Positions 9,834 through 44,148 of a stretch of 64,000 nt of DNA are shown one piece after another. The stretch is from the NCBI GenBank assembly GCA_965205605.1, contig CBDBHE010000007.1, forward strand, positions 96,001 to 160,000. Reading direction: 5' to 3'. A program made the translations under genes and the position numbers. Numbering within the stretch: position 1 is the stretch's first letter; every line of letters starts with the position of its first letter. The notes beneath the pieces are model-generated. The model was not told where the DNA came from. It did not search any database and worked only from the letters and a program-made list of their open reading frames with translations. This stretch comes from Spirochaetota bacterium. Lineage in GTDB: Bacteria; Spirochaetota; UBA12135; COTS27; CBDBHE01.

Positions 9834-12386
9834 ATGAATTTTAATCGTAGAAATTTTTTAAAAACAACTACTATCAGTAGTGGTCTTTTATTATTACCAT
9901 TTAGTTTAGAAAAAAAATTATGGGGACTGGAGTCTTCGGGGTCTTTACTTAAAGACAAACAAGCCTTTTTGGATAAGTTAAGACTTGGGTTTTCAAAAAC
10001 TGGCTATCGAAAAAATACTGATGAAGGATTGGAAGTGAAGGCTCTTGTAAAGGAAGGCCTTAAATCTCTTAATAAAAAAATCAGCGAACAGGGGACATTA
10101 ATAGAAAAACCAATCAATTTAAAAAACATCCCAACGTATTGTAGGTATGCTTGGGCCCTTGCTATATTATCAAAAGGAAAAAATGAGAGTGATGGAGAGA
10201 TTTATGGGGTAATAAAGAAAAAGATGTATCGTATGGCTATAATCATTCATAGGGTAGAAGTAACAAAGCCCAATAGTTATAAACGTTTTCATTTTTCGTG
10301 TTTTGCCATACCGAATACTTTTGTTAATGTGTATTTTTATAATTTTAAAGATATGGTTGGAGTAGAGAAAGGGACCATAAAAGACCCCTTAATCGTAAAA
10401 GGACACGACGTAATTGTCGAACTAGCAAAGCAGGCTTGGACACAACCGTATAGGAATGATGAAACTGATAAAAATCCATTCCAAATTGCTCGTTTTAAAG
10501 GGCATGTTTGGTGGGTAACGGCTAATGCTATCACTTATAGGCCTGTCTATCCAGTTGCAGTTGCTTTAAATTCTATTGTTGGTATTGATGTATTGGTGGA
10601 GGTCTGTAATAGAGCCATTGATTTTCTTTACCCAGGAAACAAAAAAGACCCATTTTGGGAGGAAGGGTTTACCTCTGATGGTCTTGGATGGGGACATGGC
10701 ACTCAAAATTATACATTTGGTTACCCTGCACAAGGGGTTCAGGCACTACTTGACATGAAAAAAAATTTCCTCAATTCACCTTGGGATAAAGGAAGTCGTG
10801 AACAAACTAGAACTAATGTGAAAATATTTTACGTACTCAAAGCTTTTGTACGTGGATCTCAGTGGATGAGGTACAAGGGTTTCATACACCCAGTAACAGG
10901 ACGTAATTGTAAACAATATGTTGAGCCAAAAGCTAGAGATGCTTCTAAAAGTAAATTTGTTGGTATACTTAAAAATATATTAAATCATTTTGTAGATTAT
11001 CTCCCTTCGGTTATTAAAGATAAACAAAAATTTGGAGTGTATGAAAAAGAAATATTAGATTTAAAAAAAGAAATGAAAAGTAAAACAGGTGTTTTTATGG
11101 ATGATTATAAAGGTGTTTATACAGGAACAAAATATTTTTGGTGCAATGACCTGATGATTCGTAAAAGTAGAAATTTTTACTGTACCATTAATATGGCTTC
11201 ATCAAGAGTGAGTGGTATTGAGTTTGGGTCTGATGATAAAAATCAAAATGATATGTATCATTATCATTCTGCAGCTGGTTCGACTTTTTTTTCTAAGGAA
11301 GGTTATGAAGCCTGCCATGCTCTTGGGGGCCATAATCTTACTGCTTTACCAGGGGTGACGGCTAAACGTGGGGAAAATAGTGACATTTTTAGTATCACTA
11401 CTTGGAAGGGTTTTAATAGTTTCCACAACTTTTGTGGTGGCACAGGGTTACGTGGGCGTAATGCATGTTGTGGTTTTATCCAAGAGTTTAATACAAGGAA
11501 TGAAAAAATTAAAAGCCTACCTAAGGTTGTAATGGGGGTGTATGTGAAGAAAGGTTATTTTATTTTTGATGACATGATGCTTGCTTTAGGGACTGGCATT
11601 AAATTAACCTCATCTGGATCTAACAAATTCCCGATATGCACAACGGTCGAAACTGCTTATTTTGAAAACCCAATAACCGTTACAGAAAATGGGAAATCAA
11701 AAACTTACGATACAACAAAAAAAAATAACGTTAATTTTGTTTTAAAGAAAAGTAAAACAGATGCCCTCAATTGGATCGAGCAAGAAAATAAATTTGCGTA
11801 TGCTCCCCTCAGTAAACATAACAAGAGTGCTGTAGAGGTGGAAATTGGTGATCGAAAAACGATTTGGAACAGACAAAGTTATCCAAATCAGAAGAAAAAA
11901 AACTTACCTAAAAATATGAACGTTCTTGATATTCGTATTAATCACGGCAAGAGCCCATTTAAGGGCGGATATGCGTATTTAGTCTATATGGGTGATAAAA
12001 AAGCTTCTCAGTCATTTAAAACATCCCCTATACAAGTCATTTCTAATAGCAGTAAAGTACAAGCGGCTTTGTATTCTAATGGAAAAAATAGTCAAGTGGT
12101 ACAGGCTGTTTTTTATAAAAGTTCTACTTTAGAAATCACAAAAGATTTTAAAATAAAAGCTACTATGCCATGTATTTTTACGTTTGAAGAGGAAAATGGT
12201 AGTGTGAAAGTGACTTTGTGTGATCCCCTATTCGATGTTTCTTTAAAGTCTATAAAAATTTCAATAACAAAGCCAATTGAAGGCAAAGCGGTTAAGAAGA
12301 AAAAAAAATGGTATGAAATCAACCTAAAGAGTGCTAGAAAGCCTTATGTAGGTCGACCAGTGAGTGCAAATTTCAAATTAGTTTAG
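9834..12386 (+). CDS. Tat-exported polysaccharide lyase family 8-like protein
   Basis: NRRNFLK twin-arginine signal; WGHGTQNYTFGY (His/Tyr spaced by 9), TGR, LPGVT, KKGYFIFDD, NHG and YAY PL8 motifs. Confidence 0.8.
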   Translation: MNFNRRNFLKTTTISSGLLLLPFSLEKKLWGLESSGSLLKDKQAFLDKLRLGFSKTGYRKNTDEGLEVKALVKEGLKSLNKKISEQGTLIEKPINLKNIPTYCRYAWALAILSKGKNESDGEIYGVIKKKMYRMAIIIHRVEVTKPNSYKRFHFSCFAIPNTFVNVYFYNFKDMVGVEKGTIKDPLIVKGHDVIVELAKQAWTQPYRNDETDKNPFQIARFKGHVWWVTANAITYRPVYPVAVALNSIVGIDVLVEVCNRAIDFLYPGNKKDPFWEEGFTSDGLGWGHGTQNYTFGYPAQGVQALLDMKKNFLNSPWDKGSREQTRTNVKIFYVLKAFVRGSQWMRYKGFIHPVTGRNCKQYVEPKARDASKSKFVGILKNILNHFVDYLPSVIKDKQKFGVYEKEILDLKKEMKSKTGVFMDDYKGVYTGTKYFWCNDLMIRKSRNFYCTINMASSRVSGIEFGSDDKNQNDMYHYHSAAGSTFFSKEGYEACHALGGHNLTALPGVTAKRGENSDIFSITTWKGFNSFHNFCGGTGLRGRNACCGFIQEFNTRNEKIKSLPKVVMGVYVKKGYFIFDDMMLALGTGIKLTSSGSNKFPICTTVETAYFENPITVTENGKSKTYDTTKKNNVNFVLKKSKTDALNWIEQENKFAYAPLSKHNKSAVEVEIGDRKTIWNRQSYPNQKKKNLPKNMNVLDIRINHGKSPFKGGYAYLVYMGDKKASQSFKTSPIQVISNSSKVQAALYSNGKNSQVVQAVFYKSSTLEITKDFKIKATMPCIFTFEEENGSVKVTLCDPLFDVSLKSIKISITKPIEGKAVKKKKKWYEINLKSARKPYVGRPVSANFKLV

Positions 12387-34702: not shown

Positions 34703-35725
34703 ATGAATCAATTTTTATTATTAAAAATTTTTATCTTCTGCTTTTTTTTAGAATCTGCTTTCCCCATTCCAAAAATCTTAAAAGAAGTTTTAAATAAAAG
34801 TTACGACTACCAATCTGCTCTTAATAAAAAAGAATACTATACTGGTGAAAAAGCCTTCTTTTCAAATCAAGTTAAAAAAGGAGATTATAATATTTCAGGC
34901 AAACCTATTCTTCTTCATTTACAGCAAGGTCATTTCTTAAAAAATCAAGAAAAAAAAATCCAAGAAATTACAGATGCTTTTGGTTCGCTGACATTTGCAT
35001 TTAATGTTGGAAAAAAAGAAGGAACCTATATGGCTTCTGCTTATTTTCTCAATTCAAAACACGGTTATACCGAACACGCCAACTTTACCCCTTACATGGT
35101 CATCTCAAAATGGAAACTATGGATTCAGGTGCTTATTTTAATGAGTATGATGATCTTTTTTTATTTTAAAGAAATTAAAAACCATTCGATTGAAAAGTCA
35201 GTTCATTTTTTTTTTTTAAGCCCTTTTCTTGTAAAAGTAAAAGGAAAGAAAAAAAAATATAAATTAAATGCCTTATTTTGGATTCAAATTTCTTATGGGA
35301 TTGTTTTTTTAACTTTTTTAGCTTTTTATTTAGCTTTTTATTCTAATCTTTATTTAGTGCTTTCTTTATTTTTTATCTACACATTTTTTTTTAAAAATAG
35401 TAAAGTAGATACTTCTTTTTTTATTTATAGTTTTTTTATAACTTTTAGCTGGTTTATTTTAAAAAATTATGGACAGACATTTCTTTTTTCTAGTTTTTTT
35501 TCCCACCCTATTTTTATTGTTCTTTTATCATTTTTGATAATGTGTTTTCCTAGTCCTTTATTTTTTATTCCTTTAAGTGTTCTTCTAATTTTTTTAACTT
35601 CTTTTACACCTATTAACATTTTATACATCGTTTTATTTTCTGTTTTTACTTTTATCATCCACTGCTTTTTGACCTCTAATACTTTTAAACAAATAAACAA
35701 CCTACTCCCAAAGAAAAAAAAGTGA
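34703..35725 (+). CDS. Hypothetical membrane protein
   Basis: Signal peptide, soluble N-domain, multi-TM C-terminal half. Confidence 0.6.
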   Translation: MNQFLLLKIFIFCFFLESAFPIPKILKEVLNKSYDYQSALNKKEYYTGEKAFFSNQVKKGDYNISGKPILLHLQQGHFLKNQEKKIQEITDAFGSLTFAFNVGKKEGTYMASAYFLNSKHGYTEHANFTPYMVISKWKLWIQVLILMSMMIFFYFKEIKNHSIEKSVHFFFLSPFLVKVKGKKKKYKLNALFWIQISYGIVFLTFLAFYLAFYSNLYLVLSLFFIYTFFFKNSKVDTSFFIYSFFITFSWFILKNYGQTFLFSSFFSHPIFIVLLSFLIMCFPSPLFFIPLSVLLIFLTSFTPINILYIVLFSVFTFIIHCFLTSNTFKQINNLLPKKKK

Positions 35726-36678
35726 AGAAGATAAAAACAAAAAAAAAAAAAACCAATTTTGCAAGCACTACTTCAGCTTACATAAAAGAAATACCTGGTT
35801 ATTTTCTAAGTAAAAACGAACAGCTCCATTATGGAAAGCTTTTTCAAAAAGGCACCCTAAAAGAGCAAGATAAGGCGATGAATAAACTCGTTAACTCATC
35901 GCTTTATCTTGTTATTAAATTAGCAAAAACGGTGGGGCATTCAGGATTAGAGCTAGATGACTTAATCCAAGAAGGCAATATCGGCCTTATAGAAGCTGTT
36001 AAACGTTATGATTATACAAAAGGATTTGCTTTTACTACTTATGCAACCTGGTGGATACGACAATCTATTTTGAAATCAATTAAAGAAAAAGCCACCAACG
36101 TAAGATTACCTAATCATATCTATGACCTTCAAAGAAAAATTGATGAAGAAGAAAAAAAGTTTTTAAAGAAAGGTGAGAAAATTGACTCAACAACCATCGC
36201 CCATAATTTAGGAAAAAAAGTAGAACAAATTAAAAAGCATAAAGTTCATATTAAGATGAGATATACTAAAAACCTAGATGATTTTTTTAATGGGAACCAA
36301 AATACAGATAATTTAAAAATTAAGGTTTCAAATGAAACAGTCTTTGATGAAATTGCAAAGGGAGAAATTCAAAACTTTATTAAAAAGCTTTTGAAAAAAA
36401 ATATTTTAAACGAACGTGAAGTAGAAATTGTTTGCTTAAGATTTGGACTTATTAACCTCATTAACCCAAGTCACTATAAAGCGTACCAAAAAATCTTGTC
36501 TAAAACCAAAAAAAATCGTCAAAAAAATCGAAAAATAAAATTAAACCTTACTTTACAAGAAGTCAGCTTTTGTATTGGTATTAGCAAAGAACGCATTCGT
36601 CAAATCGAAGGAATCGCTATTAAAAAATTAAAAAGCTACCGAAAATTTAATGAAAAAGTTTTTTCTAACCTTCTTTAA
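35722..36678 (+). CDS. Alternative sigma-70 family factor (RpoD/RpoS-like, no region 1.1)
   Basis: DLIQEGNIGL, FTTYATWWIRQ, VRLPNH and TLQEV...SKERIRQIE motifs. Confidence 0.92.
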   Translation: MKKIKTKKKKTNFASTTSAYIKEIPGYFLSKNEQLHYGKLFQKGTLKEQDKAMNKLVNSSLYLVIKLAKTVGHSGLELDDLIQEGNIGLIEAVKRYDYTKGFAFTTYATWWIRQSILKSIKEKATNVRLPNHIYDLQRKIDEEEKKFLKKGEKIDSTTIAHNLGKKVEQIKKHKVHIKMRYTKNLDDFFNGNQNTDNLKIKVSNETVFDEIAKGEIQNFIKKLLKKNILNEREVEIVCLRFGLINLINPSHYKAYQKILSKTKKNRQKNRKIKLNLTLQEVSFCIGISKERIRQIEGIAIKKLKSYRKFNEKVFSNLL

Positions 36679-36808
36679 AATTTTTTAAAAAAATTTAATA
36701 ACCCATCAATAACTCCTTAATGACTATTTTAGGGCAACTTGGATTTTAACTATTTACTTTAAGCTTGTTGTTTATTTATAATGGGGTATAATTATAATAT
36801 TACGTTAA

Positions 36809-36974
36809 AGATTTATGATTTAATACTTTATATTTTCTAAAATTAAAGCAGAATCTATTGTTAGGTATAAATATTTATTTTATTAGATCAAATAACCCTA
36901 AAGGAAATCCATATGATATTTAAATGTTTATTAGTCTTAATAGCGATGCAGTTAAATGACTTGTTTTCTTATGA
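36809..36974 (+). repeat. Copy 1 of duplicated upstream plus signal-peptide cassette
   Basis: AGATTTATGATTTAATA...CTATTGTTAGGTATAAAT (36809-36872) and the first 62 coding nt are similar to 38934-39057. Confidence 0.9.
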
Positions 36975-38886
36975 AGCTGATACTAAATCCAACACCTCTC
37001 AAACAAAAAAACTATACAAAAAATCCTTACCCATTAAAACTAAAATCCTATCCATTAACAAACCTATCTCTTTTACTGAAGAAGTAACAGATAATTTCCA
37101 TATTGTCTATAATAAAAATAAAAAACACGCACTCTATGATCACAATATAAAAATAGAAGAGGAGGCTCTTTTAACACCATTTACAAAAAAAAAAAAAATG
37201 AAACCCTTATTTTTGTATTATAAAAAAGGATATCTAGCTAATAATGCGATTGTCTCTATCTATATTCATAAAATTAAAACTAAATCAACTCTAGGAGGCA
37301 AAAATGGATTAATATTAGGGGACGCTTCTATCAGTGTGAAAACAAGCGAGACTCTATCTTCAGTAAGCATAAGACATATTAAAAATAAAAAGGAAAATTA
37401 CATTTTTTATTTTCCTGGGATACCTAAAGATACTAAAGATGGATTAGCACTCTCAGCCAAAATGTCCTCAAACGATACACTACAATGGTTCTTAACTTAT
37501 AATTCATTTTCTTATAGAGGAGAATGTTTATTAAAGCAAACTTCTAAATACTACCCCATTGGTCTCTATCTAACACCCTCTAAACATCCACAGGAGATAA
37601 GTTCTTTTACTATTCGAAAGCTACTACAATCAAAGGAATTAAAAGCTAAATATGCCTTTAAAGAATTAACACATAAATATAACCCAAAATTCCATCCCCA
37701 GTATCAAAGCAGTCAATTAAAGTACGATCGTAACCACCCTGCTACAAAATACCTCGTGCTTAAATCCATACAAGGGCCTTTACACAAAGAAGAGATCGCA
37801 GGTTTAGAGAATTATTTATTAAACTATGGCAAACCCACTATTAACTGGCTAAATTATTATTTTAGAAGGACTTATATGCCCTATATGTTGGAATGGGTAT
37901 GGGAAAAAAAGAATAACCAAAAATTAATCAACCAATCTATCCAAATGGCACAAAGTGTCATTGCCCATAGAAGTGATAAACTTGGGGACGAAGGTATTTA
38001 TACTATAGGTCAGGTCCCTGTATGGCCCCATTACAGGGGTGTACAATTCTTAAAAGGAAAGATGACCTTGAGTTCTGGTTTCGCATCATTTGGTTCTGCT
38101 CTTTCATGGATAACTGTCCCTTCTAAACTAATTGCAAATAATAAAAACCTATGGGATCAAACAACAAGTATAAATAACAAAAACTATAAACAAATAGCCT
38201 ATGAGTTAATTGATGAAGCAATGGTGACTATTGATTTTACTTTAAAACACTATCTCGAAAAGAAAACAAAACTCTTAAAATCCCCTGCATGGGGAGCAGA
38301 ACCTGAAGGTTGGGTTCCTCAGTGGAATCGTTCACTTCCTTTTATAACGGCCTTAATACCTCTCATTGATGCGATGAAAGCTTTTAAAATCCACCCTAAA
38401 AAAATAGTATTATTAGAAGAAATTGTAAAAAGATACATTTCGTATTTTTTATCCTATGTCAAGTACTACGATCACAATGGAAAAACCGTACTCAACTATC
38501 CATATGGAGACTACCGTACTGTGAATAATCCAGAACAATCTGAAGACATCGGTCATGCCGGTTTTGATGGGCGTCAGCTTCAGATGATCTACAAAGCGAA
38601 AAGATATAGCTTAAAGGAAAAATTTCCAAAAGCCTATGCTAACACACTGGCAGATATCGTGTGTAAAGGAAATGGTGTCTTTAAAAAACGTTTAAAAGGA
38701 GACAGAACCTTTGCTTTTACCTATTTTGCAGGATTAGAAGGGCTTATCTGGCTTGCTCACTGGCGTCCTGAGCTCTACGAGCACGTCATTGAATACACCT
38801 ATAACAAAGTTCTCAAAAAGAGGCTCGATTCCAGGTTTGTCTGGGAAGTCCTTAAATTAAAAGAACAAAAACAGCAAAAAAAATAA
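36913..38886 (+). CDS. Secreted hypothetical protein, possibly carbohydrate-active (helical C-terminal domain)
   Basis: Signal peptide; beta-rich N-part; Trp/Tyr-rich helical C-part with NYPYG...SEDIGH; next to lyase genes. Confidence 0.6.
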   Translation: MIFKCLLVLIAMQLNDLFSYEADTKSNTSQTKKLYKKSLPIKTKILSINKPISFTEEVTDNFHIVYNKNKKHALYDHNIKIEEEALLTPFTKKKKMKPLFLYYKKGYLANNAIVSIYIHKIKTKSTLGGKNGLILGDASISVKTSETLSSVSIRHIKNKKENYIFYFPGIPKDTKDGLALSAKMSSNDTLQWFLTYNSFSYRGECLLKQTSKYYPIGLYLTPSKHPQEISSFTIRKLLQSKELKAKYAFKELTHKYNPKFHPQYQSSQLKYDRNHPATKYLVLKSIQGPLHKEEIAGLENYLLNYGKPTINWLNYYFRRTYMPYMLEWVWEKKNNQKLINQSIQMAQSVIAHRSDKLGDEGIYTIGQVPVWPHYRGVQFLKGKMTLSSGFASFGSALSWITVPSKLIANNKNLWDQTTSINNKNYKQIAYELIDEAMVTIDFTLKHYLEKKTKLLKSPAWGAEPEGWVPQWNRSLPFITALIPLIDAMKAFKIHPKKIVLLEEIVKRYISYFLSYVKYYDHNGKTVLNYPYGDYRTVNNPEQSEDIGHAGFDGRQLQMIYKAKRYSLKEKFPKAYANTLADIVCKGNGVFKKRLKGDRTFAFTYFAGLEGLIWLAHWRPELYEHVIEYTYNKVLKKRLDSRFVWEVLKLKEQKQQKK

Positions 38887-38933
38887 GACCCATTCAATCC
38901 TAAAAATTGGGATTCAGAAAGAATTAGTTTCGT

Positions 38934-39057
38934 AGATTTATGATTTAATATTTTATATTTTCTAAAATTAGAGTAACATCTATTGTTAGATATAAATGAT
39001 GTTTAAATACTTATTAGTCATATTAGTCATGCAGTTAACTGTCTTGTTTTCTTATGA
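38934..39057 (+). repeat. Copy 2 of duplicated upstream plus signal-peptide cassette
   Basis: Similar to 36809-36974 but lacks the ~40-bp SD-containing spacer. Confidence 0.9.
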
Positions 39058-41449
39058 TAAATTTCAACTTTTATTAGACACTCCAGTTGATGCTGCAGTT
39101 TTTGATTTAGACAGAGCTGGTAGTCGGGATCTAATCAAAGAAAAACAAAAGAATCCAAATTATAAGGCCGTTTTTGATAAAAAATCTCTACCTGATATGA
39201 AATGGGTTAAAAAAATGATGATTAAGTTGGATAAAGTTAAATCATTAAGACAAAGTCTACCCAAAGTTAAAGTTGATTTAAAAACAATAAAACATAGAAA
39301 ATTACCTTATCCTGATAAAGCAGAAGCAGAAAAATATTTAGTTCATTGTAGTTTTCTTAATGATTTAATCTCTCTTTGTAGGGTAGTACGGTTAAAAGAA
39401 GAACTAAAAAATGATAAAGCCTTATCTAAAAAAGTGATTGATTTGATTTTTAAAAATTTGAATTTCTATATGGTAGAATTTGCACCAGATAGGCCTTATT
39501 GGAGAGTGACGATGCGTTTTAGCAATTATAAAGCTACACGTTTAGCATCCCCCGTTCTTGCTCTTTTAGACAGGATAGTGCTTCTGCTCCATCCTTATAC
39601 CACTAAAAAGACGTTAGAGGCTAATCAACGTAAATTTGTTTGTTTAAATGTATTGAATTACACAGACCACCTTATAAATAATTCAGTTGGTGCTCAAAAT
39701 AGAGGTGTGAACTGGATGGCAAGATTAAACCATATAAATACCCATTTTTTTACTAAACATCTCTATGGCTTTACTGGGGCATTAAAAGAGTTAAAGGAGC
39801 ATTTAGCTGATGGATATGAATATGCTCCTTTTCAAAGAAGAATGGGGACTTTACCAGATGGTGGATTTTGGCATCATGGATCTCAAGCGTATTGTGTTCC
39901 CTATGGAACTGGAGACTTCAATCATGCTGTTTATTATCTTAAAAATTTTGAAAAGACACCGCTTGAACTAGATCGTATTCATTATGCAGTCTATGAAACT
40001 CAATTGTTAGATAAATGGCAATATATTATTTACAATAAAGAATGGCTAGATCTATCAATAACAGGTGGAAAAAACGTAGCTCAAATTAAACGTTACAAAG
40101 CGAAAGTCTACCCTCGGACACTAAGTAAGATGGTCTCTAATATTATGAAACTTGATAAAAGCAAACTAACACGTTTAAAGGAATTGAAAGAGCTAAGTAA
40201 GAAAATAAAAAATAAAGAGTTTGAAAGTAAGCTTATAATTAATAAAAATTTTTGGCATTGGGAATATATGGTACATCGTCGACCTGGTTGGTATATTGGT
40301 TTCAAAGGGATGTCGTCAAGGACAATCACTGCTGAATGGGATCAAAACGCCCATCTTACTAGTGGTCATACTGCGATAATGAGAAAAGGAGATGAATATT
40401 GGAGAATTCGACCGGCTCTTAATTGGACTGCGTTACCAGGTATAACTACAGAACAACTTCCTTCTAAATATTTACTAAATCGCTTCGTAGCGACAACGGG
40501 TCAATCAGATTTTGCTAATGGAGTTAGTGATGGGAAGTATGGTTTATTTGCATTTGAGCACAAACCAAAAGATAAGGTTATAGGAACCGTTCATGCTAAT
40601 AAAGCAGGCTTCTTCTTTGAAAAGGGGATGGTTGCATTGACTTCAGGCATAAACCGACATAATCGTGGGTGGGGAAATGATGTTTGGACTACACTTGACC
40701 AACGTATACGTCGAGGGGTAGTTACAGCTTTTATCAATGGTAATATAATTGTTTTTGAAGATCAGGAGTTTAATAAATCATTTGATGTACGTGGATTTGC
40801 ATGGGTACACCATGATGGCATTACTTATTTTTTGCCTGAAAATCAAAATCGAAAGATCATAATAAAAAGTGATAGAAAGCAAGGGGAAGTCAAAGACGTA
40901 TTACCTCATAACAAAAAAGGTCTTACTTATGACCAAACTGTTTTTTTGGTAACCGTTAATCATGAAAAGCAGGTAATAAATGATAAATGTTCATATATGG
41001 TCATTCCAAATATGAGCTTAGATGAAGTTAAAAAAATTACTAGTTTTCCATTTTATAAAATTATTAAAAATGATATAAAGCAACAAGCTGTTATTGATGA
41101 AAATCAAGGTATTTCACAGTTGGTTTTTTATAGTTGGGGAGAGATTAAAATCCCAAATGGTTTAATAGTATCCTCTGAACATCCATTAATCTTAATGTTA
41201 CGGAAGGACTTAAAAAAGATTTCTGCAGTGGTAGCGAATCCTTTACAGCTTAAGAAACATATGGATTTTTCTCTACATAAAAACAAATCTGCAATTAGCT
41301 TTTTTATAAGTGGTAAATTATTATCAAAAAATAAGAAGGCTATTTGTACTTATGATAAAAAATTAAATAAAACAAAAGTGTCCGTTTTATTTAATAAAGC
41401 TGCTGGATATGAGGGGGATTCTGTCACGGCAGAGCTTTTAGTTAAATGA
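38996..41449 (+). CDS. Secreted polysaccharide lyase family 8-like protein
   Basis: GVNW, DGGFWHHGSQAYCVPYG, YMVHRRPGW, NWTALPGIT, FANGVSDG, TTLDQ and WVHHDGITY resemble chondroitinase AC/hyaluronate lyase. Confidence 0.88.
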   Translation: MMFKYLLVILVMQLTVLFSYDKFQLLLDTPVDAAVFDLDRAGSRDLIKEKQKNPNYKAVFDKKSLPDMKWVKKMMIKLDKVKSLRQSLPKVKVDLKTIKHRKLPYPDKAEAEKYLVHCSFLNDLISLCRVVRLKEELKNDKALSKKVIDLIFKNLNFYMVEFAPDRPYWRVTMRFSNYKATRLASPVLALLDRIVLLLHPYTTKKTLEANQRKFVCLNVLNYTDHLINNSVGAQNRGVNWMARLNHINTHFFTKHLYGFTGALKELKEHLADGYEYAPFQRRMGTLPDGGFWHHGSQAYCVPYGTGDFNHAVYYLKNFEKTPLELDRIHYAVYETQLLDKWQYIIYNKEWLDLSITGGKNVAQIKRYKAKVYPRTLSKMVSNIMKLDKSKLTRLKELKELSKKIKNKEFESKLIINKNFWHWEYMVHRRPGWYIGFKGMSSRTITAEWDQNAHLTSGHTAIMRKGDEYWRIRPALNWTALPGITTEQLPSKYLLNRFVATTGQSDFANGVSDGKYGLFAFEHKPKDKVIGTVHANKAGFFFEKGMVALTSGINRHNRGWGNDVWTTLDQRIRRGVVTAFINGNIIVFEDQEFNKSFDVRGFAWVHHDGITYFLPENQNRKIIIKSDRKQGEVKDVLPHNKKGLTYDQTVFLVTVNHEKQVINDKCSYMVIPNMSLDEVKKITSFPFYKIIKNDIKQQAVIDENQGISQLVFYSWGEIKIPNGLIVSSEHPLILMLRKDLKKISAVVANPLQLKKHMDFSLHKNKSAISFFISGKLLSKNKKAICTYDKKLNKTKVSVLFNKAAGYEGDSVTAELLVK

Positions 41450-41680
41450 AAAAACTAAAAAATGGTGCAGGCCTGTGGGATACGGGTAATTATTATTATT
41501 ATTTATTGTAAAGGAAGGATAAAAAAAAAGTCTTCTTTTGAGGGCGTGCTGGAGATAAATTAGATTTTGATAAAAATCGATTCATCGTTCTTTAAAAATA
41601 AAAAAATTAGTTGTATAATTAACCCTATTAATAATGATATAAAGAATTATTTAAAAGAAAAGAAACAAGGAGATGAAATT

Positions 41681-42859
41681 ATGAAAAACAAACAATTAAT
41701 TTGTTGCACTTTGTTGAGTATTTTGATGTTTGGTAATCTGCTCGCAAAGAAGGCATTTTCAGACCAGAAACCAGAATATTTTGGTGACCCCAATTTTATT
41801 TTTGACGAATCCAAGTATGATGAAAATTATCCTGACATGAAAGAGTGGGCGAAAGCAGGTGTTAAGGGAGGGATCCCTTACAGGGGGACGCTTCCGATTA
41901 TTGCACGCATTACTACAAAAGATAATATTCAAAAAGCTATTGATCAAGCCAATCCTACTAAACCGTCAGTAATTCTACTCGCAAATGGGATCTACACAAT
42001 CACTAATTCTGTGAAAATGAAGTCTAAGATCATCTTACAGGGCACAGATAAAAACAAAACAATCATCAATGTGAACATGCGCCAAAAGTGGAAAGGATGG
42101 GGCAGAAAAAAAATCGGTATTTACTTTCGTAAGGTCAATTATGCTGGATTGGAAAACCTGACTGTACGTTTTGACTCCGGTGGAATTGAACCTGTAGATA
42201 ACAAAAATTATTCAGACAAATGGCGCAAGGGTATGATGAATAATGATGTAAAAAGAGATGACTTTTATGTGGCGCTTGTAAAATTCAGGGAAGCTACAAA
42301 CTGTTGGGTGGATGATTGTATGTTGCTTAATTCTGGTACCGACCCAGTAATTACTTCAGGTAACGACATGCACCTTACTTTCCGAAATAACTTTGTGGAT
42401 CGTGCACACAATAAAGGCGCAGGAGGTAATGGCTATTTTACCATGCGTGGACAGTATACATTAATATGTGGCAATACTATCAAGCGTCTACGTCATTTTG
42501 CTATTGAAGTAGGTGCTAAATATTGCGTGGTAGTAAACAATAAATTTGAAGTGGATGTAAACTTTCACCAAAGAGACAAGGGTCACAATTTGGTGGAAGG
42601 CAATAGTATACGCATCCCTGAATGGCACCGACACGCTGCCACCCATAGCGGCTGGGCGGTATTTGCAGCAGGTGGTTCTATTCACGGTGCTACAGGTCCA
42701 GGTAACCGTATGTTTAACAATACCAGCGATCTACGTAATTCTGGCCCTAGATTTGCAAATCCGGACACAGTCTATAAAACCCAAGGAAAATCAATCAGAG
42801 TCCACAGCACTACACCACCAAAACATGGCACTCTTTATGCTGTAAAGCTTGACTTTTAA
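41681..42859 (+). CDS. Secreted right-handed beta-helix protein (pectate lyase-like fold)
   Basis: Start moved from 41567 to the ATG after AAGGAG; signal peptide; WAKAGVKGGIP, IQKAID, LLANGIY, NCWVDD, GGNGY and NFHQRD. Confidence 0.75.
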   Translation: MKNKQLICCTLLSILMFGNLLAKKAFSDQKPEYFGDPNFIFDESKYDENYPDMKEWAKAGVKGGIPYRGTLPIIARITTKDNIQKAIDQANPTKPSVILLANGIYTITNSVKMKSKIILQGTDKNKTIINVNMRQKWKGWGRKKIGIYFRKVNYAGLENLTVRFDSGGIEPVDNKNYSDKWRKGMMNNDVKRDDFYVALVKFREATNCWVDDCMLLNSGTDPVITSGNDMHLTFRNNFVDRAHNKGAGGNGYFTMRGQYTLICGNTIKRLRHFAIEVGAKYCVVVNNKFEVDVNFHQRDKGHNLVEGNSIRIPEWHRHAATHSGWAVFAAGGSIHGATGPGNRMFNNTSDLRNSGPRFANPDTVYKTQGKSIRVHSTTPPKHGTLYAVKLDF

Positions 42860-43230
42860 CTAATTAGCACGAAAAATCGTTTCCTAAATTAGTATGTAGA
42901 ACTTAGGTACTAGATTTTCTTTTAGGATTTCAATAAGTAGTGTAAATGAATAGAAGATTTTTTACAAAATCGACCAAGATAAAATTGTACTAAATACTGA
43001 TTAATGTGTATACTTGCTAAAAAAGCACCCCATTTTCAATATTTATGATTTTTAAGAGAACAACTTTAGTTAAATTGATAGAAGTAATTCGAAATTACCC
43101 AATTTTAATTTTATCTTTTTATCATTCAGCTCAAATTACAATCATATCGCTCTGGGGACTGCGATACCACTGGCACATACATTGAGAATGTTTAATTTTA
43201 AAGGTTTTATTTCATTTAAAAAGATGATGA

Positions 43231-43506: not shown

Positions 43507-43839
43507 TGTCACTAAAAGATTAACCATATAAATTAAATATGCCGTACTTTGGTGGAAGAGCAAGAAATCAGTTAAAATAGGCTAAAGAAAATAATAATAA
43601 ATACAGAGATGGAAAGAAAAAAGATACTAATTAATGGGAGTTATACTACTAAAGCTCTTTCAAGGAGTAAACCCTGACATCATTTCTTCAGCTCATTATA
43701 ATCGTTTTTTAGGTGTTAAAAGAGGGTATCTTAAAGTAAAAGACAATTCAAAAATTGAAGCATCATATTAATATTGTGCATTTTCACATAGAGTTTAGGC
43801 CGTGTAAAGAAAGCGAATTGGAAAAGGAAAAAACATGGT

Positions 43840-43912
43840 TGGGTGAGGACAGAATCGAACTGCCGACATCTACCTTGTAAGGGTAGCGCTCTACCAATTG
43901 AGCTACTCACCC
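43840..43912 (-). tRNA. tRNA-Val (TAC)
   Basis: Reverse complement GGGTGAGTAGCTCAATTGG...CTACC-CTTACAA-GGTAG...GTTCGATT...CTCACCCA. Confidence 0.96.
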
Positions 43913-44148
43913 AAGATTTTGTTAAATAGTGCTATCATATAATGAAAAGACTCAATGAGTCAAACTTTTTTCAAAAAATAATTTCTTATCATTTTTTTAT
44001 CTTTTAAAACAAAAAACATACTTCAATTTTTAAAAAAATCTTATAAGATAAGAAAAGCAAAGCAAAATGTTCCAAATAAAAAAAAATTCTTTAAAACCAA
44101 AGTTGTATCAAATAACAAAAAAAAGTTATAATTTTTTTTAAAAATTCA

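Follow-up and report, generated by a model that had tools for sequence, protein, structure and literature searches.

In a 64,000-nucleotide (nt) stretch of DNA from a bacterium of the phylum Spirochaetota (GenBank assembly GCA_965205605.1, contig CBDBHE010000007.1, positions 96,001 to 160,000 of the forward strand; hereafter the window, whose own numbering is used throughout), two adjacent genes, open reading frames (ORFs) 1 and 2, begin with nearly the same DNA and then continue into proteins that are unrelated to each other. The duplicated 5′ module comprises a 64-nt upstream block and the first 21 codons, which encode a predicted Sec-type signal peptide, and it stands in front of a modelled two-domain carbohydrate-active protein (ORF1) and a predicted polysaccharide lyase of family 8 (PL8; ORF2). 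We consider it probable that a single local recombination copied the 5′ module of one of these genes onto its neighbour.

Two adjacent genes share a 5′ module

A repeat search of the window returned two pairs of direct repeats, one between 36809–36872 and 38934–38997 (D2; 64 nt, 91% identity) and one between 36913–36974 and 38996–39057 (D3; 62 nt, 85% identity). The first-pass annotation of this DNA had placed near-duplicate upstream DNA and about 21 near-duplicate first codons at exactly these positions. The parts of the module and the two genes that carry it are as follows:

36809..36872, plus strand: upstream block, copy 1 (repeat D2), a putative promoter or 5′ leader
36873..36912, plus strand: spacer present in copy 1 only, a gap of 42 columns in the alignment once two overlapping bases are counted
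36913..36975, plus strand: codons 1–21 of ORF1, MIFKCLLVLIAMQLNDLFSYE, signal-peptide-like N-terminus, copy 1 (repeat D3)
36913..38886, plus strand: ORF1, 657 amino acids, with leader, linker (residues 23–93), beta-sandwich (99–220) and barrel (about 276–657)
37185..37198, plus strand: homopolymer of 14 A (A14) in ORF1, codons 91–95, TKKKKM
38934..38997, plus strand: upstream block, copy 2, 64 nt, continuing directly into the ATG of ORF2
38996..39058, plus strand: codons 1–21 of ORF2, MMFKYLLVILVMQLTVLFSYD, signal-peptide-like N-terminus, copy 2
38996..41449, plus strand: ORF2, 817 amino acids, predicted PL8 polysaccharide lyase

The upstream block and the codons abut in copy 2, and in a MAFFT alignment 42 extra bases part them in copy 1, where the spacer contains AAAGGAAA 6 nt 5′ of the ORF1 ATG. 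The likeness between the two DNAs ends within codon 21 (..TCT TAT GA, the end falling after GA), two codons past a Leu-Phe-Ser (LFS) motif, so that the breakpoint falls where cleavage is predicted, as had been noticed from the letters alone. When both copies are taken together, about 13% of their positions differ, in addition to the 42-nt insertion or deletion, and the duplication is therefore not recent: either it happened long ago, or this region changes quickly. The leader peptides are identical at 13 of 21 residues (BLASTP of ORF1 against ORF2, E = 3e-4).

The genome that was searched for related DNA consists of 1,686,894 bases in 8 contigs, is 91% complete and has a guanine plus cytosine content (G+C) of about 30%. 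With copy 2 as the BLAST query, the parts of copy 1 were recovered at E = 2.3e-19 and 3.4e-14, and the next-best match, 20 nt of AT-rich DNA, stood at E = 0.03, which places the repeat far above chance. A 5281-base contig from an independent assembly of sequencing run X1 spans 36500–39400 without a mismatch, its sole difference being the length of the A14 homopolymer, and two contigs of run X2 cover 36688–39400 with a break at the same homopolymer. No junction that skips ORF1 was seen in the contigs of these two runs. Since the X1 contig spans both copies, the repeat is not an assembly chimera, an origin that the first-pass annotation had left for checking.

Short AT-rich matches are common in a genome of this base composition, and one might ascribe the likeness to chance AT-rich similarity, to a chimera, or to paralogues that have diverged past recognition. 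We give this almost no credence in view of the two E values, the divergence of about 13%, and the independent contig that spans both copies; moreover, ORF1 and ORF2 differ in family and in the order of their domains, yet their 5′ ends are 85–91% identical.

No relationship is detectable between the mature proteins

BLASTP aligned ORF1 with ORF2 at residues 1–21 only, everything else having E values above 4, and hhalign of the two family alignments gave a probability of 0.15% (E = 0.39). The order of domains differs as well, with a sandwich followed by a barrel in ORF1 and a helical domain followed by a super-sandwich in ORF2. From these three results together it follows that ordinary paralogy is not applicable, and the earlier impression that the mature proteins are unrelated holds. 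Homologues of each mature part also bear other N-termini: each of ten fetched relatives of ORF1 has its own leader, unlike that of ORF1; the ten closest relatives of ORF2 have their own leaders, with alignments to ORF2 that begin at about residue 22; and two PL8 paralogues (C7:86879–89572 and C4:21284–23854), which are 25–30% identical to ORF2, start differently.

In the explanation that we favour, segmental duplication or ectopic conversion over about 2.1 kilobases (kb) would have copied a piece of about 125 bases, made up of the 64-nt upstream block and the 21 signal-peptide codons, with its breakpoint at the junction of leader and mature part. The outcome would be that two unrelated polysaccharide-acting enzymes, both probably acquired, begin with one host-style export signal.

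A different history, in which a whole ancestral gene was duplicated in tandem and one mature part was then replaced in frame by a foreign gene, is conceivable, if unlikely. The copies stand in direct orientation and in register, at a distance of 2.1 kb or one gene length; both mature parts look foreign; and in Borrelia the erp genes reportedly arose when one promoter and leader was joined to many unrelated bodies (PMC10016077). However, tandem duplication followed by replacement needs two events with a breakpoint in the same codon, where the local copying of a 5′ module needs one, and neither BLASTP nor hhalign found a remnant of a common mature part in ORF1 and ORF2.

The module occurs twice, in neighbouring genes

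Whole-genome BLAST with the cassette DNA, i.e., the complete 5′ module, found exactly two copies, which are adjacent. A tblastn search of the same genome with the 22-residue leader peptide of ORF1 gave no further copy, only matches at chance level, and an exact 29-nt core pattern had 0 matches in a collection of species-representative genomes. Among 40 relatives, BLAST of the cassette recovered no full copy and none that spans both blocks, 16 of the 40 having just short AT-rich matches of 19–56 nt. The first-pass annotation had reasoned that more copies elsewhere would point to a system for domesticating acquired secreted enzymes; none came to light by BLASTN in the 1.69 megabases (Mb) of this genome or with the 29-nt pattern in the genome collection.

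We also compared the 5′ regions (−120 to +90) of 1263 ORFs of at least 150 amino acids all against all, which yielded 38 matching pairs, of which 13 were inspected, the remaining 25 being lower-scoring. Eight of the inspected pairs are ordinary paralogues that are similar along the protein, one is a physical overlap of neighbouring 5′ regions, two are out of register or of low complexity, one is an adjacent gene pair with 92 nt of common upstream DNA only, and one is ORF1/ORF2, which is the sole pair among these 13 to have both common upstream DNA and a common N-terminus and nothing further.

The original proposal, a portable expression-and-export cassette that was repeatedly recombined onto acquired secreted enzymes, is extremely improbable on this evidence and, for this genome, close to refuted. 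It gains from the two foreign-looking enzymes that bear the module and from the existence of a second adjacent gene pair with a common upstream stretch of 92 nt; against these stand the presence of just two adjacent copies in 1.69 Mb at 91% completeness, the other leaders of the two PL8 paralogues and of the next gene downstream (ORF3), the failure to find a full copy in the 40 relatives or the 29-nt pattern elsewhere, and the dissimilar N-termini of the other pair. What stands of that proposal is a common 5′ module on unrelated cargo, and what falls is the portable system.

The other adjacent pair lies outside the window, on the minus strand at C7:41313–43750 of the same genome, and is this genome's second case of a locally duplicated control region. 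It consists of a lipoprotein-like gene of 399 amino acids and a membrane protein of 320 amino acids, whose N-termini are not alike; their common upstream stretch is 82% identical over the 92 nt and contains a TATAAT-like site and the palindrome AAGTTAACTT.

We also weighed whether the upstream block could be the remnant of a small mobile repeat, similar to the end of a miniature inverted-repeat transposable element or of an insertion sequence, that carries an outward promoter and landed twice. Genome G040, from the same phylum, gave 22 matches to the cassette query, mostly to its bases 22–45 at 23/24, and these are parts of a repeat, about 160 bases long, that is often situated at the ends of contigs. 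However, the likeness ends after 24 AT-rich bases, neither copy of the block has an inverted partner, the genome that carries ORF1 and ORF2 holds no other copies, and the duplication stays in register as it passes into the coding sequence, something that a mobile end would not account for; this origin is very improbable. The G040 repeat itself (L019–L026) has inverted ends and many copies and shares 23 of 24 bases with 38946–38969 and nothing further, a likeness that is probably due to chance in AT-rich DNA. Within the window, ATTTATGATTT at 43042–43052 resembles the start of the block and was taken as chance, as it is 11 bases long and has no BLAST match.

Export and expression signals

Signal peptides of the Sec type (those cut by signal peptidase I) have a positively charged start, a hydrophobic core of at least 7 residues and a small residue at −1. 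Both leaders show this composition, with K4, the cores CLLVLIAM and YLLVILVMQLTVLF (Kyte–Doolittle means over 9 residues of up to 2.9), and S at −1. The shared peptide is thus a predicted Sec-type signal peptide, which would be cut after S19 and direct export. The leaders of lipoproteins end at a cysteine (the lipobox), and those of ORF1 and ORF2 end in ..LFSYE and ..LFSYD, the sole Cys being residue 5 of ORF1.

From ORFs of at least 150 amino acids in this genome we gathered 268 signal-peptide-like N-termini, among which LFS is the third commonest tripeptide at positions 14–30 (21 occurrences). Polar or charged residues typically come next, as in a homologue of FlaA, and because LFS recurs in this way in the genome's own leaders, the shared leader looks host-style. 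The genome is that of a spirochaete: FlaA genes (PF04620) above the cut-off number three in it and none in 14 control genomes.

The upstream block may act in expression as a putative promoter or operator or as a 5′ leader. Two candidate sites lie outside it:

36753..36782, plus strand: promoter-like site TTTACT-18-TATAAT, 10/12 matches, 5′ of the copy-1 block only, with none before copy 2
41471..41487, plus strand: weak terminator-like hairpin just 3′ of ORF2, the sole one in 36400–43200

Several observations weigh against the explanation that we favour. Eight of the 21 shared codons differ, and all 8 differences alter the residue, mostly hydrophobic for hydrophobic, so that the exact peptide bears no sign of purifying selection. 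The leader has Leu at −3, which is unusual, and that of copy 1 has N-D within its hydrophobic stretch. The promoter scan found no consensus sigma-70-like promoter within the block, the region as a whole has 28 promoter-like sites where 29.4 are expected in shuffles, and the ATG of ORF2 has neither the spacer nor a Shine–Dalgarno-like site before it. The other 8 genomes of the order have DnaE proteins that are 42–47% identical, too distant a kinship for them to reveal how the site looked before the event, and runs X1 and X2 come from one sample, possibly the source of this DNA, at depths of 5.5x and 2–3.6x. As for the start of ORF2, of 1104 long ORFs just 213 have a Shine–Dalgarno-like site before them, compared with 58 when a control position is scanned, and an ORF that lacks one is therefore not unusual here.

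It is possible, and we say so tentatively, that the block is a transcribed 5′ leader or intercistronic element, with a transcription start upstream of copy 1 and read-through into ORF2, so that the signal peptide would be the sole selected part of the module; with the same reserve, its duplicate before ORF2 would then serve translation initiation, or nothing. The TTTACT-18-TATAAT site before copy 1, with no counterpart before copy 2, would fit such an arrangement. So would the scan of 36400–43200, in which no terminator-like site was found between ORF1 and ORF2 and the region's only one follows ORF2; in the absence of an intervening site the two genes could be co-transcribed. However, neither type of site is more frequent than in shuffles (1 terminator-like hairpin found, 3.8 expected), and the promoter-like site is for this reason only a lead. 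The predicted folds of the block are neither stable nor shared between the copies (z-scores of +1.25, −0.20, +0.51 and −0.63, no better than shuffles), Rfam gave no match other than tRNA, and with its 91% identity the block is no less conserved than the coding part. A search for inverted repeats in the block found weak, AT-rich ones in copy 1 and none in copy 2.

The cargo: a polysaccharide lyase and a protein of an uncharacterised family

ORF2 is, by its profile matches, a predicted PL8 polysaccharide lyase. The super-sandwich and C-terminal domains of that family both score above their Pfam cut-offs (PF02278, E = 8.9e-48, 163.4 bits, cut-off 27; PF02884, E = 2.1e-09, 38.1 bits, cut-off 22), and residues 283–762 match chondroitinase AC (1cb8) at E = 3.7e-35. 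In the alignment H294 and Y303 fall opposite H203 and Y212 of chain 1cb8_A, which we take to be its catalytic His/Tyr pair, and are invariant in 11 sequences. ORF2 thus has the super-sandwich, the C-terminal domain and the His/Tyr positions of the chondroitin AC, hyaluronate and xanthan lyases of PL8, but it is a distant member with a leader unlike those of its relatives and an N-terminal domain that Pfam did not detect (Lyase_8_N was not reported at E ≤ 0.1). About 390 residues lie N-terminal to the sandwich, and residues 283–415 align to the corresponding part of 1cb8. The NCBIfam chondroitinase-AC model gives 151.7 bits, where its cut-off is 1000, which makes ORF2 only a distant relative of chondroitinase AC, and its closest relatives are 40–46% identical over the full length. 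One database protein, P0098, equals ORF2 from its second ATG (816 amino acids).

ORF1 had no match in Pfam, NCBIfam or the PDB sequences, and a word-based protein search found only ORF1 itself. An exhaustive HMMER search, by contrast, retrieved 97 proteins at E ≤ 1e-3 (ORF1 included), 24 of them at E ≤ 1e-30, and the part conserved in this family covers residues of about 265–655. Forty of the 97 were aligned and the alignment was used for an AlphaFold2 model; no Pfam model covers the shared domain in any of these 40, and the accessory modules that a few of them carry, of kinds common in carbohydrate enzymes, are F5/8 type C (2), Por_Secre_tail (2), DUF1961 (1) and fn3 (1). The model (predicted local distance difference test 82.6, predicted template modelling score 0.82) comprises an N-terminal helix (residues 2–23) that corresponds to the leader, a low-confidence stretch (23–93), a beta-sandwich (99–220) and a helical barrel (about 276–657).

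Foldseek matched the sandwich to legume lectins and galectins (lectin/ConA-like). For the barrel, VIA-align matched the glycoside hydrolase family 105 (GH105) structure 4xuv_B (Z 19.1; root-mean-square deviation 4.0 over 291 residues), YteR (1nc5_A, Z 18.6), 8h1k_A (Z 18.3) and the heparin-specific unsaturated glucuronyl hydrolase 3wiw_A (Z 16.2), with many unrelated barrels within 3 Z units. A protein atlas search pointed to GH88 and alginate-lyase clusters with scores of at most 0.82, which are leads only, and the family profile found just YihS in the PDB, at E = 0.38. On the strength of the modelled folds and the Foldseek and VIA-align matches, ORF1 is best described as a two-domain carbohydrate-active protein with an (alpha/alpha)6 barrel, from an uncharacterised family. 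Its C-terminal domain has the fold of (alpha/alpha)6 enzymes such as the GH105/GH88 unsaturated uronyl hydrolases and the AGE-type epimerases/isomerases (Z 19.1 to 4xuv_B), but ORF1 lacks a sequence-level match to any Pfam, NCBIfam or PDB entry. That ORF1 acts downstream of the ORF2 lyase is a guess.

The homopolymer in ORF1 is A13 in the X1 contig, a length that would break the reading frame. Homologues of ORF1 align on either side of the run in the A14 frame. The difference between the two lengths is either a length error at low coverage or slippage.

Genomic setting and probable origin

The cassette is located on a contig of 742,916 bases, where a sigma factor gene, dxs and adk flank it in one direction and dnaE in the other. 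The immediate neighbours of ORF1 and ORF2 are as follows:

35722..36678, plus strand: gene of a sigma-70-family factor, RpoS/RpoD-like, 318 amino acids, directly 5′ of ORF1
41681..42859, plus strand: ORF3, right-handed beta-helix protein, leader MKNKQLICCTLLSILMFGNLLAKKAFS, with AAGGAG before the ATG at 41681
43836..43913, minus strand: tRNA-Val (TAC) found by ARAGORN (Rfam RF00005, 73.3 bits), which flanks the three-gene block

Neither mature part looks native to the phylum, which agrees with the foreign enzyme domains of the first-pass annotation: searches of a sample of 400 other genomes from the phylum, and of the 40 relatives, recovered the ORF1 domain in none, and PL8 proteins at E ≤ 1e-20 turned up in 3 of the 400, with 29–32% identity to ORF2. 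Among the best relatives of ORF2 elsewhere, at 40–46% identity, the three with a name are all from Bacteroidota (Tamlana, a metagenome-assembled genome (MAG) of Flavobacteriaceae, and Puteibacter), and the named relatives of ORF1 are from MAGs of Rikenellaceae and Endozoicomonadaceae. The three genes of the block have a G+C of 0.33–0.38 against 0.25–0.33 in their neighbours, and a G+C at third codon positions of 0.30, 0.23 and 0.35 against 0.20–0.24. Given this distribution in the phylum, the relatives in Bacteroidota, the shift in base composition and the flanking tRNA-Val, horizontal acquisition of the three-gene block is likely, although not proven. The genome is the sole member of its family among the genomes compared.

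If the genes came from outside, the module might record leader capture as a step of domestication, in which local recombination replaced a foreign 5′ end by the resident upstream region and its LFS signal peptide. This idea seems to us less likely than not. Were it true, two enzymes from other phyla would have become exportable, and perhaps expressible, in a spirochaete with a small genome, and the trace of this step would still be seen in the second copy.

Searches for related loci, with P0005 in genome contigs and with P0008 and A3 in metagenome contigs, found no relative. P0005, a relative of ORF1, and P0100, a relative of ORF2, have the same sources, with a longest contig of 524,880 bases for both, and the two families may thus lie together on a single contig elsewhere, in another organism. 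Two further relatives of ORF1, P0010 and P0017, are each listed with 14,384 bases.

Comparison with the erp genes of Borrelia

The nearest precedent comes from Borrelia burgdorferi, in which the erp genes (ospE/ospF/elp, with an ‘upstream homology box’) are described as a conserved promoter/operator and leader on mature parts of independent origin (PMC10016077). ORF1 and ORF2 resemble them in having a conserved upstream region and leader on unrelated mature parts, again in a spirochaete. However, the erp genes form a multi-copy family of lipoprotein genes on cp32 prophage plasmids, whereas the module described here occurs just twice in a genome of 91% completeness, has no lipobox cysteine at the end of its leader, stands in front of enzymes, and is located on a chromosomal contig of 743 kb beside housekeeping genes. 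Co-expression has been shown for erp and is putative for the present pair. By analogy, the module would work like an erp-type cassette in miniature without being a member of the erp family.

The duplication is a one-off local event of a kind already known from the spirochaetes of Lyme disease and not a genome-wide system. It offers a clean, datable example of one export signal given to two unrelated genes by the copying of about 125 bases, and it illustrates modular gene assembly beyond the lipoprotein families of Borrelia, though it reveals no new mechanism. The uncharacterised family of ORF1, with its 97 members, beside a PL8 lyase may outweigh the repeat in value.

Further observations on the surroundings

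The sigma factor upstream of ORF1 starts with a lysine-rich stretch and contains an insertion ahead of region 4. It matches the NCBIfam models rpoS_proteo (5.2e-45) and RpoD_Cterm (3.8e-44), with every NCBIfam score under its curated cut-off, and in the order's other 8 genomes its gene matches RpoD-type genes only.

The frame of ORF3 is open over 41567–42859, with the ATG at 41681 behind AAGGAG as the probable start and a leader that ends in KAFS. Its Pfam matches are weak and below the curated cut-offs (PF12708, 1.2e-4; PF13229, 0.026), and genome BLAST found no DNA match between ORF3 and the cassette, its leader being different. ORF3 appears to be the third secreted polysaccharide-type enzyme of the block. 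From 42860 onward, about 970 nt without a convincing ORF separate ORF3 from the tRNA-Val gene; the tRNA gene and this ORF-poor spacer could be the scar of an island insertion.

Elsewhere in the window, 9834–12386 and C6:17506–20043 of the same genome encode proteins of 845 and 850 amino acids that are 96% identical and share a twin-arginine-like start (MNFNRRNFLK...). Their 5′ regions are 99.5% identical over 210 nt, and the pair is a recent large duplication.

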